64,000 nucleotides of DNA from an uncultured Thermotogae bacterium (GTDB taxonomy: Bacteria; Bipolaricaulota; Bipolaricaulia; RBG-16-55-9), in the NCBI GenBank assembly GCA_964567595.1, contig CAZMNF010000004.1, positions 3,744 to 67,743 on the forward strand, written 5' to 3'. The notes beneath the pieces are model-generated. The model had not been told where the DNA came from. It worked only from the letters and a program-made list of their open reading frames with translations, and did not search any database. Positions 15,855-55,228 of this stretch are shown in pieces. Position numbers and translations under genes: made by a program. The stretch's first letter is position 1. Each line of letters begins with the position of its first letter.

Positions 15855-16023
15855 CGATCATCCCGCGCGCTTCGCTCCGTGTCCAGGAACCAGGCGATGC
15901 GGGCCCATCTCCGTGACGACGCCCGATCAGCCATGATCCAGAACAGCCTAGGAATTGATGGGCGTCATCGAAAGAAGATGTTTCGATCTTATACTTAACG
16001 CGGAACCAGGGAAAGGAGACGCA

Positions 16024-16464
16024 ATGACGGGACAAACGCGACGCTGGCTGCCAATGGCCGTTGCGGTCCTGCTCGGGCTAGGTGTGGCGGTGTTGCTCGG
16101 CATCGGACAGGCCATGGACCGGAATCCTTGCGACCACGATTGCCCGCTGGCCCTCGTCAAAGCCACCCTCAGCGTTGAAACGCCCGACGACCCCAACCGA
16201 ACCACGGGTCAAGTCAAGCTGGACGGGGTCATCGTCCCTCCGCGGGACTGCGCTTCCGCCACGGTCGCGATCGACGTCTATCGCGCAGGCCCGTCAAGTC
16301 AAGCCGACCGCGAATGGATCGGGCACGGTTCAGCCACGACGCGGAACCTGAGCGCTGGCCAGGATTGGCCTTTCGAGATCGTCGTATCGGGCATCGATTC
16401 CCGTGGCGACCGAGCGTACGCCTACGATCTCAGCGAACTGAGCTGTCGGCGAGCGGACCGATAG
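16024..16464 (+). CDS. hypothetical secreted/membrane-anchored protein
   Basis: ATG 16024 lies 6 nt after AAAGGAGAC. It has the signal/TM MTGQTRRWLPMAVAVLLGLGVAVLLG and is Cys-containing. The ORF-track start at 15955 is an extension. Confidence 0.5.
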   Translation: MTGQTRRWLPMAVAVLLGLGVAVLLGIGQAMDRNPCDHDCPLALVKATLSVETPDDPNRTTGQVKLDGVIVPPRDCASATVAIDVYRAGPSSQADREWIGHGSATTRNLSAGQDWPFEIVVSGIDSRGDRAYAYDLSELSCRRADR

Positions 16465-16691
16465 CTTGCCCATCCAGCGGGCGTCTCGAACCCAGCGTTT
16501 TGACCGGGGGCATGACGCACCGTCCTACTGGCCAACCTGTCGGGGAACTCGCCGGCCAGCTCCGCCGCTGTCCGGACCCATAGGCCCCCAGGTTGCCAAT
16601 CGATCCGGTCGCGTTTATCGGAAGGCCCCGCCGTCCTCATACACTCGCAGCCGGGGAATGGTTATCGTCCCGGATCGGAGGGGGACCTGAT

Positions 16692-17097
16692 ATGCGCCTG
16701 CCCAGACTGTTGGTCGTTCTCGGGCTTCTATTGATCGGCCTCGTATCGGCAAGCCAAACGGCCTTCGAGCCGGGACCGTCGAGTCCCTCCGAACCGAAGC
16801 CGACCCATCCAATCATCGCGGGGACGACTGGGGCTATTCCGGCCTCTCCTCCAACGATGACAGCTCGGGGCTGACATGGCCGCCGTTCGCGACCACGTCC
16901 GCAAGTTGCGGGCCGGCGGCTCAACCAACATGTCAGCTGGCCTCGAGATGGGAACGGATCGATTCGGTGAAGCGGAAAATGTCGATCCGTCGCAGCGCGA
17001 AAATCGGATCATCTTCCTGACCGACGCCATGCCGAACCGGGGCGTCACGGACGACAACGAGCTCGAGCTTCTCGCTGAGCTCACGTCCGTCGAATAG
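16692..17097 (+). pseudogene. decayed von Willebrand factor A (vWA)-domain gene remnant
   Basis: A strong RBS GGAGGGGGAC precedes ATG 16692 and a signal peptide MRLPRLLVVLGLLLIGLVSA. That ORF stops at 16874. A +1-frame ORF 16876..17097 encodes GGSTNMSAGLEMG...RIIFLTDAMPNRG, resembling vWA helix-3/beta-4 with no MIDAS DxSxS. The frames are broken and the total is too short for an intact vWA protein. Confidence 0.35.
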
Positions 17098-17255
17098 ACT
17101 CCGCAGCCGAGACGCTCCGTGATCGCTGGGCCCCTTCTCTGGGCGTCGGCGTCGTCCGCGCCCCCGTTCAAGCATCGGCACCTGGCGCTGCCCTGGCCCT
17201 CGTCTGCGCGTCCCGCCAGAATCCCCATAGCAAGCCTCGGGTCGGAGCGAACAGC

Positions 17256-20602: not shown

Positions 20603-22318
20603 TTACATGCGCTCCGGTGCGCTCATGCCGATCAGCGCGAGCCCCGTGGCGAGCACGGTCTGCGCGCTTTTCACCAGCGCCAACCGTGCCCCTTCGAGCT
20701 CCGCGTCCTCGCCGAGGACGCGACAGGTGTCGTAGAATTTGTTGACGACCGCGGCCAGGTCGCCCAAATACGCCGCGACCGTGAAGGGATCGTACGTCGC
20801 CGCCGCGTGGTGGACTCTATCAGGGAACTGCTCGATCCACTTGGCGAGAGCGACCTCATTGCGCTCGGTCAATCGCGCGTAGGCAGGCGCGTCCGGGACC
20901 TCGCGATCGGCCTTGCGGAGGACGCCGGCCATGCGGGCGTGCGTATATTGGATGTAGGGCCCGCTCTTGCCCTCGAAGTTGACCACGTCCTCCCAGCGGA
21001 AGTTGATGTCGTGCGTGCGCGAGCGGCTGATCGTGGCGTAGATGACAGCACTTACGCCCACGTCATGGGCGATCTGCTCGCGCTCGGCTTCAGGCAGATC
21101 GGCAACCTTGGCCACGTCCTCAATGATTTCGCGGGTCCGGGCGATCGCCTGTTGTGCCACGTCCTCGAAGAACACGACGCGGCCCTTGCGAGTCGACATG
21201 CGCTGGTCCTCGAAGAGCACGACGCCGAAGGCGACATGAACCAGGCGCTCGGCCCAGTCGTAGCCCATCTTCGCCAAGGCCTCGAAGAACTGCTGGAAGT
21301 GCAGCGATTGGCCCGCGTCGACGACGTAGAGCTTCCAGTCGAACGCGTACTGCTGCTGATGGTAAATGGCAGCACAGAGATCCCGCGTGGCGTAGACCGT
21401 GGCGCCGTCGCGCTTGCGCAACATCAACGGCGGTCGGTCGGCGTCGGTGTCCGCCTCGAGCGGAATGACGATCGCGCCCTCGCTCTCCTGGGCAATGCCC
21501 TCCTCCATTAGGCGATCGATCAGCGGGCTCGCCTGGTCGCGGTAGGCGCTCTCGCCGCGGATCTCTTCGAATTCGATGCCGAGCATGTCGTAGTAGGCGC
21601 GAAACGCCTCGAGGCTCTGCCCGACGAACCATTCCCACAGTTCCGTCGCTTCCGCGTCGCCGGCCTCCAGCTTCTGGAACCAATGGCGGGCCTCGGCCTC
21701 CAGCTCGGGGGTCGTCTCCGCTTCCTCGTGGAACGTCACATAGAGCCGAAAGAGCTCGTAGACGCGATCCGCTTCGACCTGCTCGCGCGAGCCCCAACGC
21801 TTGTAGGCCGCAATCAGCGCGCCGAACTGCTTGCCCCAGTCCCCCAAGTAGTTGACGCCGACGACGTCGTAGCCCAAATGACGGTGGATCAGCTTGAGCG
21901 TGTGCCCGAGCACCGTCGAGCGCAGGTGGCCGACGCTGAACGGCCGGGCGATGTTCGGGGACGAATAGTCGATGACGACCGTCTGGTTCGCGCCCTCGTC
22001 GCTGCCGCCGTAGCGCTCGCCCTCCTTGAGGACGCGACCGACGACGTGGCGCATCAGCTCGCCCCGAGCCACGGTCACGTTCAGATAGGGGCCGGCCGCT
22101 TGCGCATCCCGGATGGGCTCGCCCACGATCGCCTCGGCGAGCTCTTGGGCGATCTCGGCGGGGGCGCGCCGCAGCCGCTGGGCCAAGGCGAAGCACGGCA
22201 GCGCGTAGTCGCCCATGCTGTCGTCGGGCGGCGTCGTCATCAGCCCACGGACGTCCGCGGCCGGCATGTCCAAAACGCCGCCGACGCGCCGGGCGATCTC
22301 GTCAACGAGTGGATTCAT
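20603..22318 (-). CDS. argS: arginyl-tRNA synthetase
   Basis: 571 aa, a class I aaRS with HIGH-like SPNIARPFSVGHLRSTV, an N-terminal Arg_tRNA_synt_N region and a DALR anticodon-binding C-terminus. Confidence 0.9.
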   Translation of the reverse strand: MNPLVDEIARRVGGVLDMPAADVRGLMTTPPDDSMGDYALPCFALAQRLRRAPAEIAQELAEAIVGEPIRDAQAAGPYLNVTVARGELMRHVVGRVLKEGERYGGSDEGANQTVVIDYSSPNIARPFSVGHLRSTVLGHTLKLIHRHLGYDVVGVNYLGDWGKQFGALIAAYKRWGSREQVEADRVYELFRLYVTFHEEAETTPELEAEARHWFQKLEAGDAEATELWEWFVGQSLEAFRAYYDMLGIEFEEIRGESAYRDQASPLIDRLMEEGIAQESEGAIVIPLEADTDADRPPLMLRKRDGATVYATRDLCAAIYHQQQYAFDWKLYVVDAGQSLHFQQFFEALAKMGYDWAERLVHVAFGVVLFEDQRMSTRKGRVVFFEDVAQQAIARTREIIEDVAKVADLPEAEREQIAHDVGVSAVIYATISRSRTHDINFRWEDVVNFEGKSGPYIQYTHARMAGVLRKADREVPDAPAYARLTERNEVALAKWIEQFPDRVHHAAATYDPFTVAAYLGDLAAVVNKFYDTCRVLGEDAELEGARLALVKSAQTVLATGLALIGMSAPERM

Positions 22319-26623: not shown

Positions 26624-26832
26624 CTCGTTGCCGATCGTCAATGATTGGCGACCGCGATCAAGGCAAGGGGGCCCGCGGCACCCCGCTCAGCCAGCGCGTG
26701 GCCCCCATGTCGCTGGCCGAGCCGACGGTGGGAGGCAGCGGCAAGCAGCCAAGCTCCCGCCGAGTATCCTGCCGTCCTGGATCCGGCGCTCAACGGTGAG
26801 TGCCGGACCGAGCGATCTCGGCGGGGGCGCGA

Positions 26833-27897
26833 TCACAACGGCGCCAGGGTGAACACGACGGGATAGAGCCCGCCGGAACGAATGTTGCGCTCCGCCAGGG
26901 GCGTCAGCTCGTTCATAGCAAACAGGGCGCGGCGCAGCGTCTCCGCTCGCGGCGTCAGCAGAACGACGCGGCCGTGCTGCGCCACGACCTGGGCCGCGCC
27001 ATGGAGAAAGCCCGAATACAGCCCCTTGAGATAGCTCGTCTTGCCCATGCGGATGCCGTAGGGCGGATTGGCCACGATCCGCTCCACGGAGGCGTCCAGA
27101 TGTTGGGACAAGGCTCGGGCGTCCAGCTCGCGGAACGCGATCCGCTCCTGCACGCCCGCCGCCTCGGCGTTCCGGCGGGCCCCCTCGAGGAACGACGAAT
27201 CCACGTCGCCGGCGATGACGCGGACGTCTGGCCAGGCTTGGGCCGCCTCGATGGCGATCGTTCCGCCGCCGCAGAACGGATCCAGGAACGTTTCGCCCGG
27301 TTGGAGCTCGGCCAAGCGCAACATCGCGTAGGCCAAGGGGGCTTTCGTGCCCGCGGGGTGGTCAAAGGGGCGGTCGAAGCGCTGCCGGTGGAGCGACTCG
27401 TCAGTGGCCTGCACGCTCAGCTCGCAGCGGACGCCGATGACGTCACAGCGGACGTCGACGTCGTAGTTCTCCAGGTCGACGTCGGTTCCGTACCGGTCCA
27501 CGAGGGCTTGGCCGACGACCTCCTGGAGGTCGATCGAGGTGTAGCTGTGCTCGCCCGAGCGCTGGCCGGTCACGCGGAAGGTGCGCGCCGATGCCATCTC
27601 GGGGATGTCGATCGTTCGGACCGCGTCGCGAATCTCGCGCAGGCCCGACGCGTCCGACGCGACGCGGAACCCGGTGAGAAATCGGGCAACGTGATACGGC
27701 GAGCGGAGCTGGGCGATCCGCGCCTCCGGGGCGTCCGTGTCGACGACCACGCGACCCCGCATCCCCATCTGTTGGTCCTGGACGCGGGCACGGAGCTTTT
27801 CCGTCGCCTCCGCGGCGACGATGTCTTCCAGCCCGGGGTTGGTGGTAAGCAGCCACTCCATGGACCTATCGTAGGGCATGGCCCGCCCGTCGGCCAT
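26833..27897 (-). CDS. THUMP-domain SAM-dependent RNA (guanine-N2) methyltransferase
   Basis: A THUMP-like N-terminal half is followed by the methyltransferase motif I LDPFCGGGTIAIEAA and motif IV IVANPPYG. The start may be an internal ATG (27879 or 27861). Confidence 0.75.
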   Translation of the reverse strand: MADGRAMPYDRSMEWLLTTNPGLEDIVAAEATEKLRARVQDQQMGMRGRVVVDTDAPEARIAQLRSPYHVARFLTGFRVASDASGLREIRDAVRTIDIPEMASARTFRVTGQRSGEHSYTSIDLQEVVGQALVDRYGTDVDLENYDVDVRCDVIGVRCELSVQATDESLHRQRFDRPFDHPAGTKAPLAYAMLRLAELQPGETFLDPFCGGGTIAIEAAQAWPDVRVIAGDVDSSFLEGARRNAEAAGVQERIAFRELDARALSQHLDASVERIVANPPYGIRMGKTSYLKGLYSGFLHGAAQVVAQHGRVVLLTPRAETLRRALFAMNELTPLAERNIRSGGLYPVVFTLAPL

Positions 27898-27983
27898 GTC
27901 GCGCCCTTGCTTGCAAACCGCCGGACCGTCAGGGACGATGGACGAGGCCGCACTTTCGACCCCATCAACTGAGGTGACCCCCG

Positions 27984-29326: not shown

Positions 29327-30073
29327 ATGGGCAAGCAACAGAATCAGAAGGCCAATCGGAGTGACAGCCGGGCAACCCAAAAGCAGGATCGAGATCAACA
29401 GGTGCAACGCCTGATCACCTACGTTGGCCTTGGCGCCGTGGCGTTGATCCTGGTCTTCGTGGGGATTTTCGTCCTGGACGACATCGGCTCGGGCATCACG
29501 GGCGAGACCGCGCTCAGCACCGAGGGCCAGCCGACCATGGGCGCGCCGGACGCGCCCGTGGAGGTCGTGGAGTTTGCCGACTTCAAGTGCCCGGCCTGCG
29601 CCGTCTTTAAAACCGACATCTTTCCCCAACTCAAGGCCAACTACATCGACACGGGCCGCATCCGCTTTTCCTTCTTGAACTTCCCGTTGCCCATCGGGGA
29701 GGACTCCTGGACTGCCGCCGTCGCGACCGAATGCGTCTATCATCAAGTGGGCAACGAGGCCTTTTGGGATTACTACAACGGGATCTTCGCCAACCAAGGC
29801 CCAGAACGCCAGGCCTGGGCAACGCCCGATCTGTTGGTCCAACTGGCTCAGGACTACATCAACCGGCCGATCGACTCGGGCGAGCTGCGCCGTTGCATCG
29901 TTGACGAGGACTATCGGACCGAGGCGGAGCGTGATCGCCAGATGGGCGTCAACGCCGAAATCCCGGGCACGCCGTCGATCTTCGTCGACGGCCAGAGGCT
30001 GAGCGACTTCCGCTACGGCACGATCGCCGGCGCCATCGATCAGGCTCTGGAACAGGCCAACGCCGCAGATTGA
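29327..30073 (+). CDS. DsbA-family thiol:disulfide oxidoreductase (membrane-anchored)
   Basis: ATG lies 6 nt after GAGGAGG. An N-terminal TM anchor is followed by a thioredoxin fold with the CPAC active site (FADFKCPACAVF) and a DsbA-like helical insert. Confidence 0.8.
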   Translation: MGKQQNQKANRSDSRATQKQDRDQQVQRLITYVGLGAVALILVFVGIFVLDDIGSGITGETALSTEGQPTMGAPDAPVEVVEFADFKCPACAVFKTDIFPQLKANYIDTGRIRFSFLNFPLPIGEDSWTAAVATECVYHQVGNEAFWDYYNGIFANQGPERQAWATPDLLVQLAQDYINRPIDSGELRRCIVDEDYRTEAERDRQMGVNAEIPGTPSIFVDGQRLSDFRYGTIAGAIDQALEQANAAD

Positions 30074-31276: not shown

Positions 31277-31315
31277 ACGTCAGCTCGCTCCCCAATGGAC
31301 AGACCCCGTTGATTG

Positions 31316-32179
31316 ATGCTCTGGCTTGTGCTCGCGTTCGGCTCAGCCCTTTTCGAGTCGCTCAAGGACCTGTTCAGCAAGAAGGGACTCCAACAGATCG
31401 ATCCCTACATCGTCGCCTGGGCGATGCCGCTCTACGCCCTTCCCTTTCTGCTGGCGACGTTGCCCGTCATCGAGGTTCCGGAGATCGGCCCCCGCTTCTG
31501 GCCGGCGCTCGCGGGCAGCGGCCTCATGAACGTCGGCGCGGCCGTGTTGTTCATGAAAGCCATTCAGCGGTCAGATCTCTCAGTTACTGTGCCGCTCGTG
31601 ACGTTTACGCCCATCTTTCTGCTCGCCACCTCGCCGATCATGGTGGGCGAATTCCCGCGCCCGCTCGGGCTGGCGGGCGTCGTGCTGATCGTGCTCGGCT
31701 CCTACGCGCTGCACCTGCGCGAATGGCGCAACGGCATCCTTGCGCCGTTTCGCGCCCTCTTGGCCGACCGCGGGCCGCAACTGATGCTCTTGGCCGCGTT
31801 GCTGTGGAGCGTCACGGCCAACTTCGACAAGATCGCGATCCAGGCCTCCTCGCCGCGCTTCTACGCCGTGGCGGTGATCGCGTTCGTGGCGACGGCGCTG
31901 GGCCCGATCGCGATCTGGCGCAGCCAGGGCCAGGCCCGTGTCGTTGTCACGCGCTGGCGGGCGTTATTGCCGGTGGGCTTCTTCGTCGCGCTGACGCTGA
32001 GCGTGCAGTTCACGGCGATCAGCCTGGCGCTGGTCGCCTACGTGATCGCCATTAAGCGCCTCAGCACGGTGCTCTCCGTGCTCTGGGGGCACCTCGTCTT
32101 CGGCGAGCGCGGCGTGGGCGAGCGGGCGCTCGGCGCGGGCGTGATGGTGGTTGGGGTGTTTCTGATTGCGGTGTCGTGA
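31316..32179 (+). CDS. EamA-family (DMT superfamily) transporter
   Basis: ~287 aa with 10 predicted TM helices and two EamA repeats. It ends with ...GVFLIAVS*. Its last 83 bp are duplicated at 33150..33232. Confidence 0.8.
   Translation: MLWLVLAFGSALFESLKDLFSKKGLQQIDPYIVAWAMPLYALPFLLATLPVIEVPEIGPRFWPALAGSGLMNVGAAVLFMKAIQRSDLSVTVPLVTFTPIFLLATSPIMVGEFPRPLGLAGVVLIVLGSYALHLREWRNGILAPFRALLADRGPQLMLLAALLWSVTANFDKIAIQASSPRFYAVAVIAFVATALGPIAIWRSQGQARVVVTRWRALLPVGFFVALTLSVQFTAISLALVAYVIAIKRLSTVLSVLWGHLVFGERGVGERALGAGVMVVGVFLIAVS
32097..32179. repeat. direct repeat copy 1 (83 bp, perfect), the native 3' end of the EamA gene
   Basis: Identical to 33150..33232. Degenerate similarity (4-6 mismatches) continues ~35 bp further upstream (32064-32096 versus 33117-33149). 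Identity stops exactly at the TGA. Confidence 0.85.
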
Positions 32180-32227
32180 TCACGACACCGCTCGAAATTC
32201 CGTCCTGTGCCGCCTCGCGACTGGAGA

Positions 32228-32255
32228 TTGACAAGGTCGAGGAAGGCGTTATGCT
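32228..32255 (+). promoter_or_regulatory. candidate promoter for the AbrB-type antitoxin operon (TTGACA-N16-TATGCT)
   Basis: A perfect -35 TTGACA at 32228-32233 and -10 TATGCT at 32250-32255. The transcript would begin at the start of the 105-nt repeated element. Confidence 0.4.
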
Positions 32256-32271
32256 GTTCCTAGACTAGGAA

Positions 32272-32380
32272 TTTACTGATCACCGCGAAAGACGGGTTAA
32301 GCGATGACCGCGACGTAGGCGCTAGCGGACATGGCGTCACTCGACTCATGCAGTGGTCAATAGTAATCACGGGGGCCTAC
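32272..32380 (+). repeat. ~105-nt repeated intergenic element, copy A (5' leader of the antitoxin gene)
   Basis: tactgatcaccgcgaaagacgggttaagcgatgaccgcgacgtaggcg...catgcagtggtcaatagtaatcac aligns at ~75% identity with 41828..41938 in the same orientation. It contains the 8-bp palindrome CGCTAGCG. Confidence 0.6.
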
Positions 32381-32381
32381 G

Positions 32382-32675
32382 ATGCCGATCGTCAAGATCA
32401 CCCGAAACCGCCAAGTCACGATCCCGAAGGAACTCTTTGAACAACTGGATCTCCACCAGGGGGCCTACGTCGAAATCTCGCGCGACGGCGATCAACTGAT
32501 CTTGCGGCCCAAGGAGCTGATCGACCGTCAACGTGAGGATGCGAAGCAAGCGTTCTTTGAGACCGTCGATCGTATCTGGGAACGCAACCGCGATGTCGAT
32601 CCCGAACGGATCGAACGGGAAGTCGAGAAGGCCCTCGATGAGGTACGCGATCGCGGGTCCGCGGACTCAGACTGA
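32382..32675 (+). CDS. AbrB/MazE/SpoVT-type antitoxin (swapped-hairpin DNA-binding domain)
   Basis: 97 aa with the N-terminus MPIVKITRNRQVTIPKELFEQLDLHQGAYVEI, a classic AbrB-N looped-hinge motif, and an acidic C-terminal tail. RBS GGGGGC. Confidence 0.75.
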   Translation: MPIVKITRNRQVTIPKELFEQLDLHQGAYVEISRDGDQLILRPKELIDRQREDAKQAFFETVDRIWERNRDVDPERIEREVEKALDEVRDRGSADSD

Positions 32676-32687
32676 CGCGGCAATCCG

Positions 32688-33116
32688 ATGGTCCGCGTCG
32701 TTCTCGACACGAACGTCCTCGTCAGCGCAACGATTTCTCCTGAAGGGGCATCAGCCCGCATCCTGCAAGTTTGGCGTGACGGTGACATTGAACTCGCGAC
32801 ATCGTTCCCCTTGCTGAGCGAGTTCAAAACCGTCCTCTCGCGTCCGCGCATCCAGAAGCATCAGTGGATGAGGACCGACGAGATCGACGCGCTACAGAAT
32901 GACCTACAGGATGCAGCGATCGTGGGGTCCGGCGAGCGGCTCGTCACCGTCATTGAGGATGATCCCGACGACGACTGGGTCCTCAACGCCGCGCTCGAAA
33001 CCGACGCAGACTTGATCATCAGCGGCGATCCACATCTCACCGACCTCCATCAATACGAAGGAATCGACATCCTCACCCCGACTGAGTTCATGGGACGTTT
33101 GGAGACTTCCGAATGA
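32688..33116 (+). CDS. PIN-domain toxin (VapC-like ribonuclease)
   Basis: 142 aa beginning VVLDTNVLVSA (first PIN Asp), with later conserved acidic residues (…EDDPDDDWVLNAAL…ISGD). It sits 12 nt after the antitoxin stop. Confidence 0.75.
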   Translation: MVRVVLDTNVLVSATISPEGASARILQVWRDGDIELATSFPLLSEFKTVLSRPRIQKHQWMRTDEIDALQNDLQDAAIVGSGERLVTVIEDDPDDDWVLNAALETDADLIISGDPHLTDLHQYEGIDILTPTEFMGRLETSE

Positions 33117-33149
33117 GCATGTTGCTGAGCGTCCTCTGAGGGCATCTCA

Positions 33150-33232
33150 TCTTCGGCGAGCGCGGCGTGGGCGAGCGGGCGCTCGGCGCGGGCGTGATGG
33201 TGGTTGGGGTGTTTCTGATTGCGGTGTCGTGA
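33150..33232. repeat. direct repeat copy 2 (83 bp, perfect), a displaced/pseudo 3' end of the EamA gene
   Basis: In frame it would read SMLLSVL*GHLIFGERGVGERALGAGVMVVGVFLIAVS*, a diverged, stop-interrupted copy of the EamA C-terminus. It begins immediately at the PIN gene stop. Confidence 0.85.
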
Positions 33233-33339
33233 GCAACATTCATTGGCACCAAAGACTTGCGTCAATCATCACCACGGTTGAATGGTGCCAGATGACGCAG
33301 GAGGTGATATCAATTCTCCGCTGGGCAATCCATGTCGAA

Positions 33340-34275
33340 AAGTAAGAGCACCTAACAAAACCGGGGGATGAGATGCTACGGTGGTCCCACGATGGCGAAG
33401 CCGTTACTGCCGGACGAGCTGTGGGCGGAGATCGAGCCGTTGCTGCCGCCGGAACCGCCAAAGCCGAAGGGCGGACGGCCGCGCATTTCGGATCGGGCGG
33501 CGCTGACCGGTATGCTGTTCGTGCTCAGAAGCGGGATCGCTTGGGAGCTGCTGCCCCAGGAGATGGGATGTGGCTCCGGGATGACCTGCTGGCGACGGCT
33601 ACAGGAATGGCACCAAGCTGGGGTGTGGGACGACCTCGTTCAGCTGTTGCAGCGCCGCCTGGGCGAGGCGGATCGGATCGATGGGAGCCGGGCATCGTTG
33701 GACGCCCAGAGCGTACCTGCTCCAAAAGGGGGCGAAAACCGGGCCGAACCCGACCGACCGCGGCAAGCGAGGCACGAAACACCACCTCCTCGTCGACCAC
33801 CACGGCCTCCCGCTCGGGGTGACGAGCTCCGGGGCGAACGTGCATGACTCCCGGATGCTGGAGGCGATCCTGGACGTCGTGACGCCTATCAAGAAACCGC
33901 GTCGCGGACGGCCTCGTAAGCGACCGAAGAAGCTGCATGCGGACAAAGCGTATGACGCGGAATCCTGCCGACGTGCCTGTGGCCATCGTGGCATTGTTCC
34001 CCGGATTGCGTGGCGTGGGGTCGAGATTTCCGCGAGACTCGGCCAACATCGCTGGATGGTGGAGCGGACCTTTGCTTGGCTCAACCGCTACCGGCGACTG
34101 CGGGTGCGGGATGAGCGACGGGCTGACATCCATGAAGCGTTCCTCAACCTGGGCTCGGCGCTCGTGTTGTTCAACCGGGTCCAAGAGTTCTGTTAGATGC
34201 TCTTAGCTTCGTGACGCTAGCTGAAAACAGAGTCATCGCTCCTTGACACCACTATCCCCCTTGATAAGCTGAATC
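33340..34275 (+). mobile_element. IS5-family (IS427/IS1031-group-like) insertion sequence; boundaries approximate
   Basis: It contains a two-ORF DDE transposase. The candidate imperfect terminal IRs are caaaaccgggggatgag (left) and ctatcccccttga (right). Possible TAA target duplication (cacctaa|...|taagctg). The ends were not rigorously determined. Confidence 0.4.
33392..34196 (+). CDS. IS5-family DDE transposase, split into orfA/orfB by a +1 frame change (programmed frameshift or indel)
   Basis: orfA is MAKPLLPDELWAEIEPLLPP...GRPRISDRAALTGMLFVLRSGIAWELLP (HTH). orfB is ...GTKHHLLVDHHGLPLGVTSSGANVHDSRML...HADKAYDAESCRRAC...MVERTFAWLNRYRRL (DDE_Tnp_1). The frames overlap around the CCAAAAGGGGGCG run at ~33722-33734, with orfB +1 relative to orfA. 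Confidence 0.75.
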
Positions 34276-34338
34276 GGAATCGTTTGCTCCGTCCTTATGC
34301 GCACGGACCGATTCTCACGATCGAAGGGAGGCAATGCC

Positions 34339-34608
34339 GTGGCCACCAAGAAGGTTGAACTCCACCTCCCCGAAGGCCTGTTCGACGCTCTGGGCGGTGA
34401 GAAAGACGCAGAACGGAAAGCCCTCCAGGCCTTACTGCTCTCCCTCATCCAAGAGGGGGAAGTCACCGCCTCATACGCGGCGGAAGTGCTCGGCATCAGC
34501 TATCACCAGATGTTGGATATCATGGCCGAGCACAACGTTGCGCTGGTCAACTACAGCCCGGACGAACTCGCAGAGGAGATTGAAAACCTGAACAAGCTTC
34601 TCGATTGA
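34339..34608 (+). CDS. UPF0175-family antitoxin-like protein
   Basis: GTG start 7 nt after AAGGGAGG, giving (M)ATKKVELHLPEGLFDALGGEKDAERKALQALLLSLIQEGEVTASYAAEVLGISYHQMLDIMAEHNV.... The family is usually paired with DUF3368 PIN-like toxins. Confidence 0.65.
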   Translation: MATKKVELHLPEGLFDALGGEKDAERKALQALLLSLIQEGEVTASYAAEVLGISYHQMLDIMAEHNVALVNYSPDELAEEIENLNKLLD

Positions 34609-35123
34609 GCCCACCTATGGTTGTGGTGTCCGACGCAAGCCCGCTCGTTATCCTGTCCAAGATCGGACACTTCACTCTGCTGAGGGAACTCTTCGCTGAG
34701 ATTCAACTCCCGGAAGCCATCGATGACGAGGTCACCCAAGCGGGCTCGGGCCAACCGGGCAGCCAAGATCTTGCCGATGCCCGCAGCGTTTGGGTAACGG
34801 TGCATCCCACTCCGCTCCCCGAACCGCGTGAACGGCTCAGACAACATCAGGGCCTAAGCCAACAGGATACCTCGGTCATCGTTCTCGCGGAGGCATTGGC
34901 GGCCGATCTTATTCTCGTGGACGAACGTCCCCTGCGAAGGACGGCTCGTGCCAAAGGGTTCACGGTGACCGGCGTCGGCGGGATTCTCCATCGGGCGAAA
35001 CGGGAGAACCTTGTCGCGAGCCTGCATGAGCCGCTCGATCACGCGATCGCCGAAGGCCTTTATCTCTCCGATCCCCTCCGAGACTATCTGTTGCAGCTCG
35101 CTGGAGAAACAGACCAGGACTGA
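34605..35123 (+). CDS. DUF3368 (PIN-like) toxin-type nuclease domain protein
   Basis: ATGA overlap with the upstream gene. The N-terminus MVVVSDASPLVILSKIGHFTLLRELFAEIQLPEAIDDEV matches DUF3368/COG2405 (172 aa). Confidence 0.7.
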   Translation: MSPPMVVVSDASPLVILSKIGHFTLLRELFAEIQLPEAIDDEVTQAGSGQPGSQDLADARSVWVTVHPTPLPEPRERLRQHQGLSQQDTSVIVLAEALAADLILVDERPLRRTARAKGFTVTGVGGILHRAKRENLVASLHEPLDHAIAEGLYLSDPLRDYLLQLAGETDQD

Positions 35124-35124
35124 A

Positions 35125-38575: not shown

Positions 38576-40387
38576 CTACCGCCGGCCGAACGCGCGTTCC
38601 AACTCGGCCAGCGGGTAGTGGAGCACGATGGGGCGGCCGTGCGGACAGCGGTACGGGTTGTCCAGGGTCCGCAGCTCGGCCACCAACTGACCCATCTCGG
38701 CCTCCGATAGCCGGGTGTGCTGGACCACGGCCGCCCCGCACGCTCGATCGGCCGCCAACGCTTTGGCGAGCGCTTCGGGATCAAGCTCGGCCTCATGGGC
38801 CAGCGTTGCCATCAGCCGTTCCAACGTTGCACGCACGTCGTCCTTCGTCAGGTCTTTGGCGAAGACGTCGGGCCAGTCGCGCACGACGAACGTCCCACCG
38901 CCGAACGGCTCCAGGCCGATGCCCATCTCGCGATCCAGGGTTTCAACGTGAGGTTCCAACCGCTCAGCCTCGTCAGCTGAGAGCTCCAGCGTCATGGGAA
39001 TCAGCAGCCGCTGGCGGCGGATCTCGCCCTGAGTCATCTGCTTCAGGAAACGCTCGTAGAGGATCCGCTCATGAGCGACGTGCTGATCGATCAACTCCAA
39101 CCCTTCGTCGGTCTGGACCAAGAGATACGTCCCGTGGAGCTGGCCGATGACGCGATCGGCGCTCTCCTCGCTCGAGGGATCGGACGGCGCCGAGGCCGAC
39201 GATGGGTCTTGCCGTTGGGGGGGCGCGTCCTCGGTCGATACGTCTGGCGAGGCGGCCTGCGCGTCGCTGATGGCTTTGCGCAGGTCGAACGAGCGCGGCA
39301 CGTTGCTCGGCTTCGCGTCAAGTTGGCGCTTGGCGGGCGGCGCCGAGCCGGGCGGCTCGCCGGCGACAGCGTTCGGGGCAGGGATCGACGTCTGCGCGCC
39401 GCCCCTTAGCAGCGCATCGCTGACGGCCCGTTTCAGTTCGCCCTGGACCGTGCGCACGTCGGCAAAGCGAACCTCTTCCTTCTTGGGATGAACGTTGACA
39501 TCCACCTGCTCGGGATCGACGCGCAGGAACAGAACCGCGATCGGGTGGCGGTCCTTATCGATCAACCCCTCGTACGCGCGCTTGAGGGCGTACCCGAGCG
39601 CGGCGTCGCGGACGTAGCGCCCATTGACGAAGAGGAATTGCTCGTTGCGGTCGGTGCGCGTCCGATCCGCGGGCGCGACGAAGCCGTGGACGCGGGCGCT
39701 CTCGCCCTCGGAACGGGCCTCCACGAGCGCCTTGGCGAGGCTCGCGTCGTAGAGATGAGCGATGGCGTCGCGGGTGTCGCGCGCGGGCGGCGACTCCAGG
39801 ACCGTCTTGGCTCCGCTCGTCAGCTTGAAGTGGACGTGGGGATATGCCAGCGCGAACCGCTTGACCGCCCGCGAGATGTGCATGGACTCCGTCCGTTCGG
39901 TCTTGAGGAATTTCCGACGGGCCGGCGTGTTGAAGAACAGCTCGCGGATCTCGATCGTCGTGCCGGGGCGGCGGCCCTCCGAGCGCGGCTCGCCGACGAC
40001 GCCGCCGTCGACGTCAACGCGCGTGGCCGCCTCGTCATCCGCGCTTCGCGACGTGATCGTCGCCCGGGAGACCTCGACGATGCTGGCGAGCGCCTCACCG
40101 CGGAAGCCGAGCGTGTCGATGCGCTCGAGGTCCCGCTCGGTGCGGATCTTGCTCGTCGTGTGGCGCCGGATCGCCAACAATAAGTCCTCGCTCGTCATCC
40201 CGGCGCCGTCGTCGACGATCTGGATCCGGTCGATGCCGCCGCTGTCGACGGCGATCTCAATGCGCCCGCTGCCCGCGTCGAGGCTGTTCTCAATGAGTTC
40301 CTTGACGACGGACGCCGGCCGTTCGATGACCTCGCCGGCGGCGATCTTGTTGACCAGGTGCGCGTCGAGCTCCTCGATGCGCGTCAC
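38576..40387 (-). CDS. mutL: DNA mismatch repair protein MutL
   Basis: GTG start 8 nt after GGAGGAG, overlapping the CorC stop (GTGA). The GHKL ATPase motif is KIAAGEVIERPASVVKELIENSLDAG, followed by the transducer and C-terminal dimerisation domains. Confidence 0.9.
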   Translation of the reverse strand: MTRIEELDAHLVNKIAAGEVIERPASVVKELIENSLDAGSGRIEIAVDSGGIDRIQIVDDGAGMTSEDLLLAIRRHTTSKIRTERDLERIDTLGFRGEALASIVEVSRATITSRSADDEAATRVDVDGGVVGEPRSEGRRPGTTIEIRELFFNTPARRKFLKTERTESMHISRAVKRFALAYPHVHFKLTSGAKTVLESPPARDTRDAIAHLYDASLAKALVEARSEGESARVHGFVAPADRTRTDRNEQFLFVNGRYVRDAALGYALKRAYEGLIDKDRHPIAVLFLRVDPEQVDVNVHPKKEEVRFADVRTVQGELKRAVSDALLRGGAQTSIPAPNAVAGEPPGSAPPAKRQLDAKPSNVPRSFDLRKAISDAQAASPDVSTEDAPPQRQDPSSASAPSDPSSEESADRVIGQLHGTYLLVQTDEGLELIDQHVAHERILYERFLKQMTQGEIRRQRLLIPMTLELSADEAERLEPHVETLDREMGIGLEPFGGGTFVVRDWPDVFAKDLTKDDVRATLERLMATLAHEAELDPEALAKALAADRACGAAVVQHTRLSEAEMGQLVAELRTLDNPYRCPHGRPIVLHYPLAELERAFGRR

Positions 40388-41760
40388 TCCTCGAACTCCT
40401 CCTCCAGCTGCTCCTCGAGCGTCGGCGGCTCCGGCGTGGCGAGGACCTTGTCGACGCGATGGCCGTCCATATCCATCACCTCGAAGTGCCACTGGCCCCA
40501 GTCGAAGACTTGGCCCTCCTGCGGGATGTCCTCCAGGCGCAACACGACGAACCCGGCCAGCGTTTCGTAATTGTGCCGTTCTTCCTCAGGCACGTCGGGA
40601 AGCCCCAGCAGATCCTTCAATTCCTCAATGGGGAGCATGCCGTCCAGGAGCCAGGAGCCGTCGTCGCGGCGGGTGGCGCGCGGCTCGGCCGGGCTCTCGG
40701 CCATGGGCAGCTCGCCCACGATCGCCTCCATGAGGTCGTTGAGCGTCACGAGCCCCTCGATGCCGCCGTGTTCGTCGACCACCAACGCCAAGTGAGTGCG
40801 CGCGTGTTTGAACCGATCCAGGACCTTGAGCGCCGACATCGTCTCCGGAACGAACAGCGGCTGGCGCAACGCCCGCTCCAAATCTAGGCGTTGGCCGGCC
40901 AGGTTGCGGTCAAGCAGCTCCTTCGCCTTCACGATTCCCTGGATGCCGTCCAGGCTCTCGCGGGCGACCGGGAAGCGCGAAAACCCGGTCTCTTGGATCC
41001 GATCCAGGTTATCATCGAGGGAGTGCTCCAGGTCGAGCCAGACGATCTCGGTCCGCGGGGTCATGAGCGCGCCGACGCGCTGCTCGCGGAGCCGGAGCAC
41101 GCTGTCGACCATGGCCTCCTCCCGCTCGGCCAGGACGCCCGCGTCGCGGCTGGAGTCCATCAGCGTCTTCAGCTCGTCGATGGAGTGGACGAGGCTGTGC
41201 TCGCTGGCGGGCCGCAGGCCGAAGCCGCGCAACAGCAAGTTCCCCAGCCCGTTGAGTCCCATGATCGCGGGCCGGAAGATCTTCAGATAGATCTCCAAGG
41301 GCCGCGCGGTCCAGAGCGCGGTCCGCTCGGACAGCTGAATGGCCAAGCTCTTGGGCGCCAGCTCGCCCAGCACGATGTGGAGCGTCGTGATGATCGAAAA
41401 CGCCACGGCGATCGCCAGCCCGTGGGCGCCAACGTTGGCCCAGGGCGTCGGAAGCGCAGCGAACAAGGGCTCGATCAGATGGGCCAACGCGGGCTCGCCG
41501 ATCCAACCGAGCGCCAGCGACGCCATGGTGATGCCGAGCTGGCAGGCGGCCAGGTAGGCGTCCAAGTTCCGCGTGCCGCGCTCGACGGCTCCCGACATCG
41601 GTACGCCGTCCTCGACGAGCTGGGCCACGCGGCTGCGCCGCACCGACACGAGCGCGAACTCGGCGGCCACAAAGAAGCCGTTGGCCAACGCCAACACCAG
41701 CACGGCAACAAGCTTGAAGCCGGTCAATAAAGCACCTGACGGATCCTCCAACGCACTCAC
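40384..41760 (-). CDS. CNNM/CorC-HlyC family transporter (DUF21-CBS pair-CorC_HlyC)
   Basis: 458 aa with 4 N-terminal TM helices (DUF21), tandem CBS domains, and the C-terminal transporter-associated domain (GQWHFEVMDMDGHRVDKV). Confidence 0.85.
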   Translation of the reverse strand: MSALEDPSGALLTGFKLVAVLVLALANGFFVAAEFALVSVRRSRVAQLVEDGVPMSGAVERGTRNLDAYLAACQLGITMASLALGWIGEPALAHLIEPLFAALPTPWANVGAHGLAIAVAFSIITTLHIVLGELAPKSLAIQLSERTALWTARPLEIYLKIFRPAIMGLNGLGNLLLRGFGLRPASEHSLVHSIDELKTLMDSSRDAGVLAEREEAMVDSVLRLREQRVGALMTPRTEIVWLDLEHSLDDNLDRIQETGFSRFPVARESLDGIQGIVKAKELLDRNLAGQRLDLERALRQPLFVPETMSALKVLDRFKHARTHLALVVDEHGGIEGLVTLNDLMEAIVGELPMAESPAEPRATRRDDGSWLLDGMLPIEELKDLLGLPDVPEEERHNYETLAGFVVLRLEDIPQEGQVFDWGQWHFEVMDMDGHRVDKVLATPEPPTLEEQLEEEFEE

Positions 41761-41827: not shown

Positions 41828-41938
41828 GGCTACTGATCACCGCGAAAGAAAGGTCAAGCGATTGCCGCTACGTAGGCGAAACCTGCGGGCATTGGGTAAC
41901 CCTACTTGTGCAGTGGTCAATAACAACACCAAGCGGCA
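41828..41938 (+). repeat. ~105-nt repeated intergenic element, copy B (between MFS stop and CorC start)
   Basis: ctactgatcaccgcgaaagaaaggtcaagcgattgccgctacgtaggcg...gtgcagtggtcaataacaacacc is ~75% identical to 32272..32380 in the same orientation. It is antisense to the flanking minus-strand genes. Confidence 0.6.
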
Positions 41939-43135
41939 TTAGGGCTGGACCGGTTGCAACGCTGCCGGCCGCCTCAGCGTCAACAGGACGGTCAATATCA
42001 ACGCGCTGAGCGTGACCGCCCCGAGGGCCCAACCGACGCTCGACCAGGCGTCGGCGAGCACGCCGACGACGTTGACGAGCAGGCTTGCCATGCCCCAGGC
42101 GAAGCCCATGACGACGGCCGACGCTGTCCCCGTTTGCGCCGGCAGGAGCTCTTGGGCTTGGGTGACGATGACGGGGTTGCTGGCGTTGAGCAACCCGCCG
42201 CCCAATAGCAACAGCAGCAGCGAAACGGCGCCGCTCGAGGCCAGAAAGCCGAGCGTGGCCGCCATGCCGAGCGTCAGCGCGCCGACGGTCACGGGCCAGC
42301 GGCCCCAGCGGTCCGAGACGTAACCGCCGGCGATTCCGCCTAGCGCCGCCATGAAGACAAACCCGAACAGCGCCAGGTTGCCCGCCAGATAATCCAGGCC
42401 GCGGGTCTCCAACAGGATGACGACGAAGCCAAGCACGCCCAGATGGACGGTATGCCGCAGCACGACCAGCCCCCAGAGCCTTGCCAGCGGCGCCCAGGGC
42501 AGGTCCGGACGGCGCAGCGACAGGCCCGGGCTCCGCGACGTCGTCCCGTCGGCGGTCGAGGCCGACCGGAACGGCCAATGGCAGAGCCAGAACGTCGTGC
42601 CCAACGCGGCCAGCGGCAGCAGCGCCAAGGGGCTCTGTGCGACGCCCCAGCGGTCGATGAACAGCCCCATCAGCGCCGGTCCGAGCGCAAACCCGACCGT
42701 CCCGCCGGCGACGAACAGCGACACGGCGAGTCCGCGGCGCGCCCCGCCGAGCTGGCCCGCGCCCGCGGCGCCGCTCGGGTGGAACGCGGCCGTCCCCAGC
42801 GAGGCCCCCAACAGCGCGACCACCACGAGCGCGTAGCTCGGCATCACCCCGACCAGGCTCATGAACGCGCCCGTCACGAGCGGCCCGATCAGCGCAAACG
42901 GCACGGCCGGCCAGCGGTCGGCGAGCCAGCCGAAGCCGATCTGGAGGAACGACCCGGCCGCATGGAACGTCGACAGCAGCACCGCCGTCATGGTGTAGTT
43001 CAGCTCGAAGGTCGACTTGAGCACGGGCAGGAAGCTGGGCAGGAAGTTGGCGTAGAGGTCGTTCGTGAAGTGGGCCAGCAACAACCCGACGAGCGGGAGC
43101 GTGCCGGTCGAAACGGCAGTCGAGGAACGGCTCAT
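41939..43135 (-). CDS. MFS transporter
   Basis: 398 aa with 12 predicted TM helices and MFS-like loop motifs. Confidence 0.8.
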   Translation of the reverse strand: MSRSSTAVSTGTLPLVGLLLAHFTNDLYANFLPSFLPVLKSTFELNYTMTAVLLSTFHAAGSFLQIGFGWLADRWPAVPFALIGPLVTGAFMSLVGVMPSYALVVVALLGASLGTAAFHPSGAAGAGQLGGARRGLAVSLFVAGGTVGFALGPALMGLFIDRWGVAQSPLALLPLAALGTTFWLCHWPFRSASTADGTTSRSPGLSLRRPDLPWAPLARLWGLVVLRHTVHLGVLGFVVILLETRGLDYLAGNLALFGFVFMAALGGIAGGYVSDRWGRWPVTVGALTLGMAATLGFLASSGAVSLLLLLLGGGLLNASNPVIVTQAQELLPAQTGTASAVVMGFAWGMASLLVNVVGVLADAWSSVGWALGAVTLSALILTVLLTLRRPAALQPVQP

Positions 43136-45436: not shown

Positions 45437-45532
45437 GGCAATCCCTTCTCAGATCGTTCCCTTTGGCTCATTCTGGATGGACACCATCGTGCCCGGGCCC
45501 GGGTCAAATGCGCTATGGAGATCCTGCGGGAT

Positions 45533-45561
45533 TTGACACCCGCCCGAGGCGCTCGTATATG
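45533..45561 (+). promoter_or_regulatory. promoter of asd-lysC-hom operon (TTGACA-N17-TATATG)
   Basis: A perfect -35 at 45533-45538, a 17-nt spacer, and -10 TATATG at 45556-45561, ~40 nt upstream of the asd ATG. Confidence 0.45.
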
Positions 45562-45599
45562 TTTACCTTACGCTTTGCTTGAGAGGCAACCGAATCATC

Positions 45600-46661
45600 A
45601 TGACGCAACGAGTTGAAGTTGGCATTCTTGGCGCAACGGGAACCGTGGGGCAGCGCTTCGTCCAGCTGCTGGACGGCCACCCATGGTTTGAGATCAGCGC
45701 TCTGGCCGCCTCCGAGCGCTCGGCCGGGCAGCGCTACGCCGACGCCTGTGCCTGGAAGTTGCCGACGCCCATGCCGGAGGGCGCTCGAGACCTCGTCGTC
45801 TCGGAGCCGACGCCCGACGCCATCGACGCCCCCGTCGTCTTCTCGGGGCTGACGAGCGATGCGGCGACGTCCGTCGAGCCGGCTTTCGCGGAGGCGAGCC
45901 ATGCCGTCATCAGCAACGCCAGCTCCTTCCGCATGGCGCCCGATGTGCCGCTGTTGATCCCGGAAATCAACGCCGATCACGTTGACCTGATCGAGACGCA
46001 ACGCCGGACCCGCGGCTGGCCCGGTTTCATCGTGACGAACCCGAACTGTTCCACGATCGCGCTCTGCCTCGCGCTAGCGCCCTTGGAGGATCAGTTCGGC
46101 ATCGAGCAGGTCGTGGCAACGACCCTGCAAGCCATCTCCGGCGCCGGATATCCGGGCCTGCCCTCGCTCGACATTATGGGAAACGTTCTCCCGAACATTC
46201 CGAAAGAAGAGACAAAGATGGAGAGCGAGACCCGCAAAATTTTCGGCCAGCTCGCGGGAGATCAATTGGAAGCACACGAGATGGCCTTGAGCGTCACCAC
46301 AACCCGCGTTCCCGTCGTCGAGGGTCACACGGAGAGCGCCTCGATCGGGATGGCAGAACAGCCCGCCATGGAGGACGTCCGGTCCGCGCTCCATGCGTAC
46401 CGATCGTTGCCGCAGAAGCAGGACTTGCCGAGTGCCCCGTGTCGACCTGTCGTTGTCACGGACGATCCCGATCGCCCACAGCCCCGCTTGGACAACGACC
46501 TCGAAGCCGGGATGGCGACCGTGGTCGGGCGACTTCGGCCCTGCCCGGTGCTCGGGGTCAAGCTGGTGCTGCTGGGCCACAACACCCTGCGCGGCGCCGC
46601 CGGCGCGTCGGTGCTCAACGCCGAACTGCTGCACGCGCAAGGAGTTCTGCCTCCCTCATGA
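45600..46661 (+). CDS. asd: aspartate-semialdehyde dehydrogenase
   Basis: The N-terminus VGILGATGTVGQRFVQLL is a Rossmann fold. The catalytic Cys region is NPNCSTIAL, and HTESA provides the active-site His. Start is ATG 45600, although the ORF track offers TTG 45579. Confidence 0.9.
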   Translation: MTQRVEVGILGATGTVGQRFVQLLDGHPWFEISALAASERSAGQRYADACAWKLPTPMPEGARDLVVSEPTPDAIDAPVVFSGLTSDAATSVEPAFAEASHAVISNASSFRMAPDVPLLIPEINADHVDLIETQRRTRGWPGFIVTNPNCSTIALCLALAPLEDQFGIEQVVATTLQAISGAGYPGLPSLDIMGNVLPNIPKEETKMESETRKIFGQLAGDQLEAHEMALSVTTTRVPVVEGHTESASIGMAEQPAMEDVRSALHAYRSLPQKQDLPSAPCRPVVVTDDPDRPQPRLDNDLEAGMATVVGRLRPCPVLGVKLVLLGHNTLRGAAGASVLNAELLHAQGVLPPS

Positions 46662-48058
46662 TCGTCATGAAGTTCGGCGGCACCTCCGTCGGCGGGGCGG
46701 CCGCCATGGAGGCCGCCATGCGGGCCGTCGAGTCCCGTCGGGATCGCCAGCCGGTCGTCGTGGCATCGGCGATGCGCGGCGTGACGGACGCGCTCAGCGC
46801 TTGCGCCGACGCCGCCCAGCGTGGGGACGAGAGCGGCGCCGTCGGCCATTTGGACAAGCTCGCCGAGCGCCACCGGACCGCCGCCCGCCAGCTGCTCGAC
46901 GACGGCGAGGCGCTGACGGAGCTCCAATCGTGGCTGGCATCCCAGTTCGAAGAGATGCGGACGCTCCTGAAAGGGTTGGCCATCCTGGGCGAACTCACGC
47001 CCCGCTCGCTCGACGCGCTGCTGGCCTACGGCGAACGCCTCTCGACGCGGATCCTCCAGGCAGCCATGACCGAGCGCGGGCTGGCGGCCCGGTGGATCGA
47101 CGCCCGCGAGGTCGTCGTGACCGATCGCCACTTCGGACAGGCAACGCCGCTCGTGGCCGAGAGCCGCGAGCGGGCTGAGCGGCTGCGAGCGGCGGCAGAG
47201 GCGGGACAGATTCCCGTGACTCAGGGCTTTGTTGGCGCCACAACCGACGGAACGACCGCGACGCTCGGGCGCGGCGGCTCCGACTACTCCGCCGCGCTTT
47301 TGGCCCAGGTGTGCGACGCTGACGAGATCGAGATCTGGACGGACGTCAAGGGGGTCATGACGGCCGATCCCAGCGTCGTGCCGGAGGCCCATCCCGTGCC
47401 GGAGCTGTCCTATGCCGAGGCCGCCGAGCTGGCCTACTTCGGCGCCAAGGTGCTCCATCCGCTGACGGTCGCCCCGGCCGTGGAAGCGAACATTCCGCTC
47501 GCCATTCTGAACACCTTCGAGCCGGAATCCCCGGGCACGCGCGTCGTTCGTGACGCCCGTTACGACGATCACGCCGTGAAAGCGATCACGGCGATCCACG
47601 GGCTCAGCCTGGTGACCATCGCCGGTCGCGGCATGCTCGGCATCCCGGGCGTGGCGGCACGCGTCTTCTCCGCGGTGGCTGAGGAGGGGATCAACGTGCT
47701 GATGATCTCGCAAGCGTCGTCGGAGCAGAGCATCTGTTTCTTGGTCGACTCGACCGACGCCGACCGCGCCATCGAAGCCCTCCAATCGGCGTTTGAGCGC
47801 GAGCGCCATCGCCACACAGTCGATCGCATCGACGCCCAGGCCGAGGTGGCGATCCTGGCGGTCGTCGGCGCCGGCATGAAGGGAACGCCGGGCATCGCCG
47901 GGAAGCTCTTCGGGGCGCTCGGCGCCCATGGCATTAACGTCGTCTCCATCGCTCAAGGGTCGTCGGAGTACAACCTCTCGGTCGTCGTCGCCGAGGGCGA
48001 CGCGGACGGCGCGATGCGCCAGATCCACCGCGAGTTCAACTTGGGGGAGGGGAAATGA
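46658..48058 (+). CDS. lysC: aspartate kinase
   Basis: ATGA overlap with asd. The N-terminus MIVMKFGGTSVG is the AA-kinase fold, and C-terminal tandem ACT domains (…ISQASSEQSICFLV…, …IAQGSSEYNLSVVV…) follow. The ORF-track start at 46439 is an extension. Confidence 0.85.
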   Translation: MIVMKFGGTSVGGAAAMEAAMRAVESRRDRQPVVVASAMRGVTDALSACADAAQRGDESGAVGHLDKLAERHRTAARQLLDDGEALTELQSWLASQFEEMRTLLKGLAILGELTPRSLDALLAYGERLSTRILQAAMTERGLAARWIDAREVVVTDRHFGQATPLVAESRERAERLRAAAEAGQIPVTQGFVGATTDGTTATLGRGGSDYSAALLAQVCDADEIEIWTDVKGVMTADPSVVPEAHPVPELSYAEAAELAYFGAKVLHPLTVAPAVEANIPLAILNTFEPESPGTRVVRDARYDDHAVKAITAIHGLSLVTIAGRGMLGIPGVAARVFSAVAEEGINVLMISQASSEQSICFLVDSTDADRAIEALQSAFERERHRHTVDRIDAQAEVAILAVVGAGMKGTPGIAGKLFGALGAHGINVVSIAQGSSEYNLSVVVAEGDADGAMRQIHREFNLGEGK

Positions 48059-55226: not shown

Positions 55227-55228
55227 TC

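Follow-up and report, generated by a model that had tools for sequence, protein, structure and literature searches.

The 64-kb window analyzed here (the whole stretch of DNA, 64,000 nucleotides) contains two copies of a short palindromic unit, A and B, which very probably represent a non-autonomous MITE inserted at two unrelated intergenic sites, and which we regard as a new family of a well-known kind. This view is based on filled and empty alleles among related genomes, terminal inverted repeats, TA flanks, the occurrence of the unit at unrelated loci and the disruption of a gene. In addition, the unit is small and non-coding and carries a target-site duplication, properties that match those of bacterial MITEs as reviewed in PMC2229807. 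A first-pass annotation of this DNA had proposed either a structured RNA or a mobile or att-like element. Of these proposals the mobile element is supported and the structured RNA is not. The two copies are located as follows.

32274-32362, + strand: MITE copy A, 89 nt including the TA at each end
32276-32360, + strand: core of copy A, 85 nt, with the flanking TAs at 32274-32275 and 32361-32362
41831-41922, + strand: MITE copy B, 92 nt, in the MFS-CorC spacer
41833-41920, + strand: core of copy B, 88 nt, with TA on either side

Upon global alignment, copies A and B were identical in 79.3% of the aligned columns (73 of 92), whereas 200 shuffles of copy B yielded a mean identity of 48% and a maximum of 56%. 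The longest exact blocks common to both copies are TACTGATCACCGCGAAAGA and TGCAGTGGTCAATA. Even when mismatches were allowed, these blocks were found nowhere else in the window, the numbers of window matches expected by chance being 0.00 and 0.11, respectively. A profile built from copies A and B detected no third copy in the 64-kb window. These results agree with the first-pass annotation, which had described a repeat of about 105 nt, present twice on the same strand at about 75% identity with nothing comparable elsewhere in the 64 kb; its positions and its assignment of both copies to the + strand were also right.

The two-copy profile also matched the reverse complement of each copy (E-values of 5e-5 and 2e-4), which means that the unit is imperfectly palindromic from end to end. 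Each copy is 59-64% identical to its own reverse complement (shuffle maximum 58%). The outermost paired segments of copy A are the following.

32274-32287, + strand: left terminal inverted repeat of copy A with the flanking TA included, TACTGATCACCGCG, pairing with 32349-32362 in predicted hairpins
32349-32362, + strand: right terminal inverted repeat of copy A with the flanking TA included, TGCAGTGGTCAATA

The pairing of these 14-nt ends continues inward. The first 19 nt of copy A recur unchanged in copy B, and a third copy from a related genome (L052, see below) agrees with them at 17 of 19 positions. The element ends can be written as imperfect terminal inverted repeats, 5'-CTGATCACYGCGRAAG ... 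GCRRTGGTCRR-3', and the end pattern of the family as TACTGATCACYGCGRAAG ... GCRRTGGTCRRTA. The cores of 85-89 nt are G+C-rich and non-coding, no ORF fitting within them, and all three known copies have TA on both sides. This flanking TA pair is best read as a 2-bp target-site duplication. Single-sequence folds of copies A and B on either strand gave -32 to -37 kcal/mol with modest z-scores (-0.7 to -2.3), and no strand preference was consistent across copies. In the three-copy alignment the full-length hairpin had 91% of its cells paired versus 33-56% with slid partners; a column-shuffle control already gave 87.5% pairing, the observed value being reached in 41 of 500 shuffles. The hairpin palindrome is a property of the element family: the ends are conserved, the interior has diverged, and a long hairpin on either strand is kept in every copy.

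For the comparison of filled and empty sites, we made use of the syntenic loci of six related Bipolaricaulia genomes. Two of these are 0.5-Mb ENA contigs (L050 and L051), whose CorC proteins are 89% and 87% identical to that of the window. The others, with CorC more than 90% identical, are a 411-kb JGI contig (L052) and three loci from Logan, a collection of public read-set assemblies, and NCBI (L053-L055). For the window CorC protein itself, a 100%-identical database entry exists. The element profile detected no copy at the orthologous sites A and B in any of the six relatives.

The features surrounding copy A are listed here.

32228-32255, + strand: sigma-70-type promoter of the toxin-antitoxin operon, TTGACA-16-TATGCT, kept in relatives without the element
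32257-32271, + strand: perfect palindrome TTCCTAGACTAGGAA, visible in the sequence itself; putative AbrB-type antitoxin operator
32382-32675, + strand: AbrB/MazE-fold antitoxin of a type II toxin-antitoxin pair
32688-33116, + strand: PIN_3 toxin of the same pair, which spans 32382-33116

Copy A is inserted between the promoter/operator and the ribosome-binding site (RBS) of the AbrB/PIN operon. It starts 18 nt past the promoter and 2 nt past the palindrome TTCCTAGACTAGGAA, from which we infer a likely operator of the antitoxin, and it ends 19 nt upstream of the antitoxin ATG (32382). The first-pass annotation was accurate in placing it just after a near-consensus promoter and up to the antitoxin RBS, in the 5' UTR of the operon. 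L050 and L051 share the same EamA-AbrB-PIN arrangement; there, promoter, palindrome and RBS are contiguous, the element is absent, and TTCCTAGAATAGGAA occupies the place of the window palindrome. With a slash marking the junction, their empty leader reads ...CTAGAATAGGAAGTTA/GGAATATCC... (with the right side extended, CTAGAATAGGAAGTTA/GGAATATCCGGGAGGTCGACATG), and the filled leader of the window reads ...CTAGACTAGGAATTTA[CTGATCACC...GGTCAA]TAGTAATCACGGGGGCCTACGATG. At the junction itself, ...GTTA/GGAAT... in L050 and L051 compares with ...TTTA[CTGATC..GGTCAA]TAGTAAT... in the window. Site A has cleanly gained the 85-nt core together with one additional TA, as a TA target-site duplication would leave it. 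The insertion appears to have left promoter, palindrome and RBS intact, while lengthening the 5' UTR from about 40 to about 130 nt and adding a hairpin with a predicted folding energy of -34 kcal/mol. The location of copy A in the AbrB/PIN 5' UTR is probably an accident of insertion, and any regulatory effect would be secondary.

Copy B is located in the spacer between two genes on the minus strand, as was originally annotated, and is antisense to both of them.

41939-43135, - strand: MFS transporter gene, its stop bordering the copy B spacer
40384-41760, - strand: CNNM/CorC gene, its start bordering the copy B spacer

The MFS-CorC spacer measures 178 nt in the window versus 93 nt in L052-L055, and a profile search combined with alignment showed that the element is absent from this site in six of six relatives (L050-L055). 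The flanks of site B align with those of the relatives on either side of the element (GGTGTTG... and ...AACCC.GG.CCGTTTACAGG). At the junction, 5-7 bases differ (AAGAC versus TTAGCCC, that is T-TA/TA-GCCC). Among the relatives, too, this short patch is variable. Site B is an insertion, the duplication being less cleanly readable than at site A. In the mRNA sense, copy B forms a hairpin of -37 kcal/mol between the co-directional MFS and CorC genes, and since this hairpin has no U-tract it is not an intrinsic terminator.

The same spacer contains a different palindrome in two of the relatives. This palindrome of 82-83 nt (L050 9895-9976 and L051 9894-9976) is TA-flanked, reads TACTGACAAGAGGC...GCCTCTTGCGGTGGCAGTA with the tips TACTG...CAGTA, and lies about 60 nt from the copy B site; it is absent in the window and in L052-L055. 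Read on the other strand, one of its tips (TACTGCCACCGCAAGAGG) is similar to the end of the MITE. With 48-55% identity to copies A, B and the L052 copy, however, it does no better than shuffled sequence, and we did not count it as a family member; it may represent a second MITE family in the same spacer or else be distantly related. L050 additionally has an extra PIN-domain gene (7852-8241) between phosphoglycerate mutase and MFS that is missing in the window, L051 and L052, and that is probably another sign of the turnover of small toxin-antitoxin-type genes in this region.

The search for further copies that the first-pass annotation had suggested was successful in one of the relatives, where a third copy resides at an unrelated site.

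L052 21081-21173, other strand: third, diverged family member, detected with the two-copy profile (E-value 2e-5)

Its ends read TA/CTGATCACTGCGGAAG...CTGCGATGGTCGG/TA, the ends shared with the other copies being TACTGATCACTGCGGAAG ... GCGATGGTCGGTA. Overall it is 61-63% identical to copies A and B (shuffle maximum 56%); its interior is almost wholly different, and it folds into a long hairpin of -37.3 kcal/mol (z-score -3.6). The L052 copy splits a DsbA/thioredoxin-like gene (20753-21356) into fragments of 108 and 62 amino acids. This ORF is intact, with 248 amino acids, in L053 and in the window (29327-30073). The bases beside the element are TGGTG versus TAGAG between the filled and empty alleles. 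Since the adjacent bases differ both at this site and at site B, the TA duplication is clean only at site A; the other two sites agree with such a duplication, but substitutions close by obscure it. There are now three independent loci (the toxin-antitoxin leader, the MFS-CorC spacer and the DsbA-like ORF of L052), each of which is empty in other relatives. The location within the DsbA-like gene means that the family inserts at unrelated loci, coding sequence included, in different genomes of the lineage. Two more syntenic loci of relatives (L107 and L108, 37 kb in total) contained no copies. Taken together, the empty sites, the L052 copy, the inverted repeats and the TA flanks support the small non-autonomous mobile element that had been suggested at the outset.

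Mobilization most likely proceeds in trans: a DDE transposase encoded elsewhere in the genome would recognize the inverted repeats by binding the ends of about 16 nt, and would integrate the element at TA dinucleotides. One such event would have placed the element between the promoter/operator and the RBS of the AbrB/PIN operon, the mRNA of which would as a consequence now start with a hairpin of about 90 nt, and another event would have placed it in the MFS-CorC spacer. Neither the window, nor about 190 kb of related loci, nor scans with the end pattern yielded an autonomous element with matching inverted repeats. Searches of the window and the related loci likewise gave no IS630-family transposase and no matching inverted repeat, and no transposase domain was found in ten further window ORFs with low third-position GC.

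The only transposase-bearing element seen in the window is an IS5-family insertion sequence (IS) of about 863 bp (33343-34205). It has two overlapping frames, one for a DUF4096 N-terminal part and one for a DDE part, both of which match NF033580, and this organization suggests a programmed frameshift or a pseudogene. Its ends read TA/AGAGCACCTAACAAAAC...GTTCTGTTAGATGCTCT/TA, with inverted repeats of 17-19 nt. No database sequence came closer to ORF1 than 69% identity, and no extra loci were reached through the transposase. A Logan contig from the same organism as the window (L048) breaks off within the IS, which is therefore probably multi-copy. Its TA flanks mark this IS as a candidate parent of the MITE, but the parentage is unproven, as the terminal repeats match weakly, at about 11 of 19 positions with one gap when compared by eye. 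By analogy with other transcribed MITEs, copies A and B may affect mRNA stability or processing. It seems unlikely, however, that the hairpins at the AbrB/PIN 5' end and between MFS and CorC have been co-opted in this way, for instance via RNase III cleavage as suggested for Correia elements, with a retuned antitoxin:toxin output in this lineage as a result, or, in a related proposal, that the family is moved by the IS5 transposase. In the latter case it would constitute an IS5-driven MITE of a prokaryote whose TA duplication is 2 bp long.

An alternative to cut-and-paste movement by a DDE enzyme is that the palindromic repeat is moved by a tyrosine (Y1/HUH) transposase, as in the REP/RAYT or IS200/IS605 'PATE' type. 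The entire unit, and not just its tips, forms a hairpin, which would suit a single-stranded-DNA mechanism, and no DDE-type parent IS sharing these ends was detected. In elements of the IS200/IS605 type the hairpins are subterminal, terminal inverted repeats and target duplications are missing, and insertion takes place 3' of a specific target of 4-5 nt; REPs measure 20-40 nt and are usually clustered. Here, the inverted repeats extend to the very termini with TA at both junctions, the left flanks GGAATT, GTTGGGC and CTACCTC have only TA in common, the copies are solitary and about 90 nt long, and no Y1 transposase was present among the window ORFs checked. We therefore consider this mode of movement to be distinctly improbable.

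Still less probable is that both copies are functional RNA loci, either as a cis-regulatory leader of the toxin-antitoxin operon or as a small RNA gene. Provided that the promoter in front of it is active, transcription of copy A is certain in view of its position between promoter and RBS, and every copy can form a stable hairpin (-32 to -37 kcal/mol). Against this, the toxin-antitoxin operons of L050 and L051 keep promoter, operator and RBS in the absence of the element, copy B is antisense to both neighbors with no promoter-like site upstream on its own strand, and the L052 copy interrupts a coding sequence. The three known copies thus include both orientations relative to genes as well as a location inside an ORF. 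The folding z-scores are modest with neither strand consistently better, and compensatory changes in the three available sequences were no more frequent than in shuffles, so that the covariation check proposed with the first-pass annotation gave no significant signal; these three sequences provide no statistical evidence for selection on an RNA structure. Rfam produced no match at the gathering thresholds, and at relaxed thresholds only matches with E-values of at least 0.4 to eukaryotic miRNA and snoRNA models. The idea of a structured RNA or toxin-antitoxin leader is accordingly not supported.

The EamA transporter gene (31313-32179) has its last ~120 nt duplicated immediately behind the stop of the PIN toxin (32063-32182 and 33116-33235); the two direct repeats are 92% identical, with the last ~88 nt fully identical. 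These repeats on either side make the AbrB/PIN cassette a unit of about 1053 bp bracketed by direct repeats. The duplication of the EamA 3' end is also present in L050 and L051; in L052 and L053, which are more closely related to the window, the cassette is missing and the EamA 3' end occurs once. Recombination between the EamA repeats, through which the cassette was precisely lost or gained, would fit this pattern. A second toxin-antitoxin-like pair, consisting of a UPF0175 antitoxin-like and a DUF3368 PIN-like gene, is located just past the IS (34297-35123); it was named from the Pfam marks on identical genes in L048. The entire block 32180-35124, which comprises the first cassette, the EamA repeat, the IS and the second pair, is absent in L053, where EamA abuts a Cys/Met-metabolism gene. 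Elsewhere in the window, the ORFs at 15057-17228, 26800-27972, 45513-48028 and 54312-56767 have a third-position GC of 0.64-0.77 versus about 0.85-0.9 for most genes and no Pfam match at E-values of 1e-5 or lower; they are possibly lineage-specific or horizontally acquired genes.

The AbrB/PIN cassette is itself variable, occurring in the window, L050 and L051 but not in L052 and L053, and it is bounded by a 120-nt direct repeat. We nevertheless give hardly any credence to the view that copy B is what is left of a second, degraded cassette or that the unit is an att or recombination site that moves the cassette. The cassette boundaries are the duplicated EamA 3' end and not the 90-nt unit, the L050 and L051 cassettes lack the unit, and the sequence on either side of copy B aligns collinearly with the MFS-CorC spacer found in six relatives, to which only about 90 nt have been added with no remnant of a toxin-antitoxin gene. 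The scenario by which the original annotation might have failed, namely that copy B is a fragment of a degraded toxin-antitoxin leader, is thereby excluded. An identity as integron attC site was rejected on the same grounds, and also because reading the sequences revealed no conserved integron core sites R''/R' (RYYYAAC ... GTTRRRY) common to the copies.

With respect to copy number, two Logan contigs that derive from the window's own organism but from different runs (L048 and L049) begin exactly 30 nt inside copy B, the 30-mer in question being TACTGATCACCGCGAAAGAAAGGTCAAGCG. Logan assemblies presumably use k = 31, in which case a break at 30 nt equals k-1. De Bruijn assemblers break at k-1 within a repeat when one 30-mer continues into several contexts. 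From this break we infer a repeat with at least one further locus in the sample. As copy A matches only the first 20 nt of copy B, another B-like copy should exist there. Database searches gave the following picture. In the species-representative genomes, which evidently do not include the source genome, the pattern TGATCACCGCG-N(48-78)-GCAGTGGTCA had 29 matches, all attributable to chance and none extending past the anchors under the profile. A 16-mer scan of viral contigs gave 16 matches, again all by chance, and blastn of copies A and B against plasmids gave none. In metagenome contigs, the two-anchor degenerate pattern had 0 matches (the L052 contig being outside the scanned set) and the single-end pattern TACTGATCACYGCGRAAG had 49, all by chance. 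The known tally is three clear copies plus one doubtful related pair, the palindrome of L050 and L051. Based on the chance-only matches in these scans and the lack of copies in L107 and L108, the family looks confined to a narrow Bipolaricaulia lineage, in which it is sparse at about one copy per 20-30 kb of sampled DNA.

The MITE explains the repeat without invoking a new class of RNA, and it cautions against misreading the toxin-antitoxin leader as a conserved regulatory structure. As far as the literature could be searched, MITEs have not been described from Bipolaricaulota (Acetothermia/OP1), an uncultured phylum, and by that measure this is the first MITE-type element reported for it. Recent transposition is evident in these Bipolaricaulia genomes, including one gene disruption in a relative, and the element accounts for the contig breaks of short-read assemblies at this sequence in the organism. 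Moreover, the leaders of the window and of L050/L051 constitute a natural before/after pair for the effect of a MITE hairpin on toxin-antitoxin expression.

Bacterial MITEs are smaller than 200 bp, have terminal inverted repeats with terminal 5'-TA-3', generate target-site duplications and form long stem-loops when transcribed (PMC2229807). Two examples are the Correia/NEMIS elements of Neisseria, for whose transcribed hairpins cleavage by RNase III has been proposed, and RUP of Streptococcus pneumoniae, which inserts at TA and whose repeats are like those of IS630-Spn1 (PMC2229807). Like both of them, the present element measures about 100 nt, is non-coding, ends in inverted repeats and carries TA at either junction; further similarities are its intergenic and sometimes co-transcribed location, its long stem-loop and its filled versus empty sites in related genomes (PMC2229807). 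It differs from both in having no sequence similarity to them, in its host from an uncultured phylum, in being G+C-rich rather than A+T-rich, in the small number of copies sampled, 2 in 64 kb, and in that no IHF site or outward promoter was detected within it. Unlike RUP, for which IS630-Spn1 is the parent, it has no known parent. Its 2-bp TA duplication and short inverted repeats are shared with the Stowaway/Tc1-mariner/IS630-derived MITEs, for example those of cyanobacteria, and like these it is presumably moved in trans by a DDE transposase. The IS5-family IS of the NF033580 type shares its genome with the MITE, lies 1 kb away from copy A and likewise has TA on both sides; its tips resemble those of the MITE weakly (GA-N-CAYC ... 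purine-rich), and the MITE interior has no similarity to it. Finally, REP/BIME and ERIC sequences are, like the present element, intergenic palindromes, and as transcribed repeats they can alter mRNA stability, as the present element may; but REPs are shorter, clustered and RAYT-linked and ERIC is restricted to enterobacteria, whereas the units described here are solitary and TA-flanked, and one of them lies within a gene.
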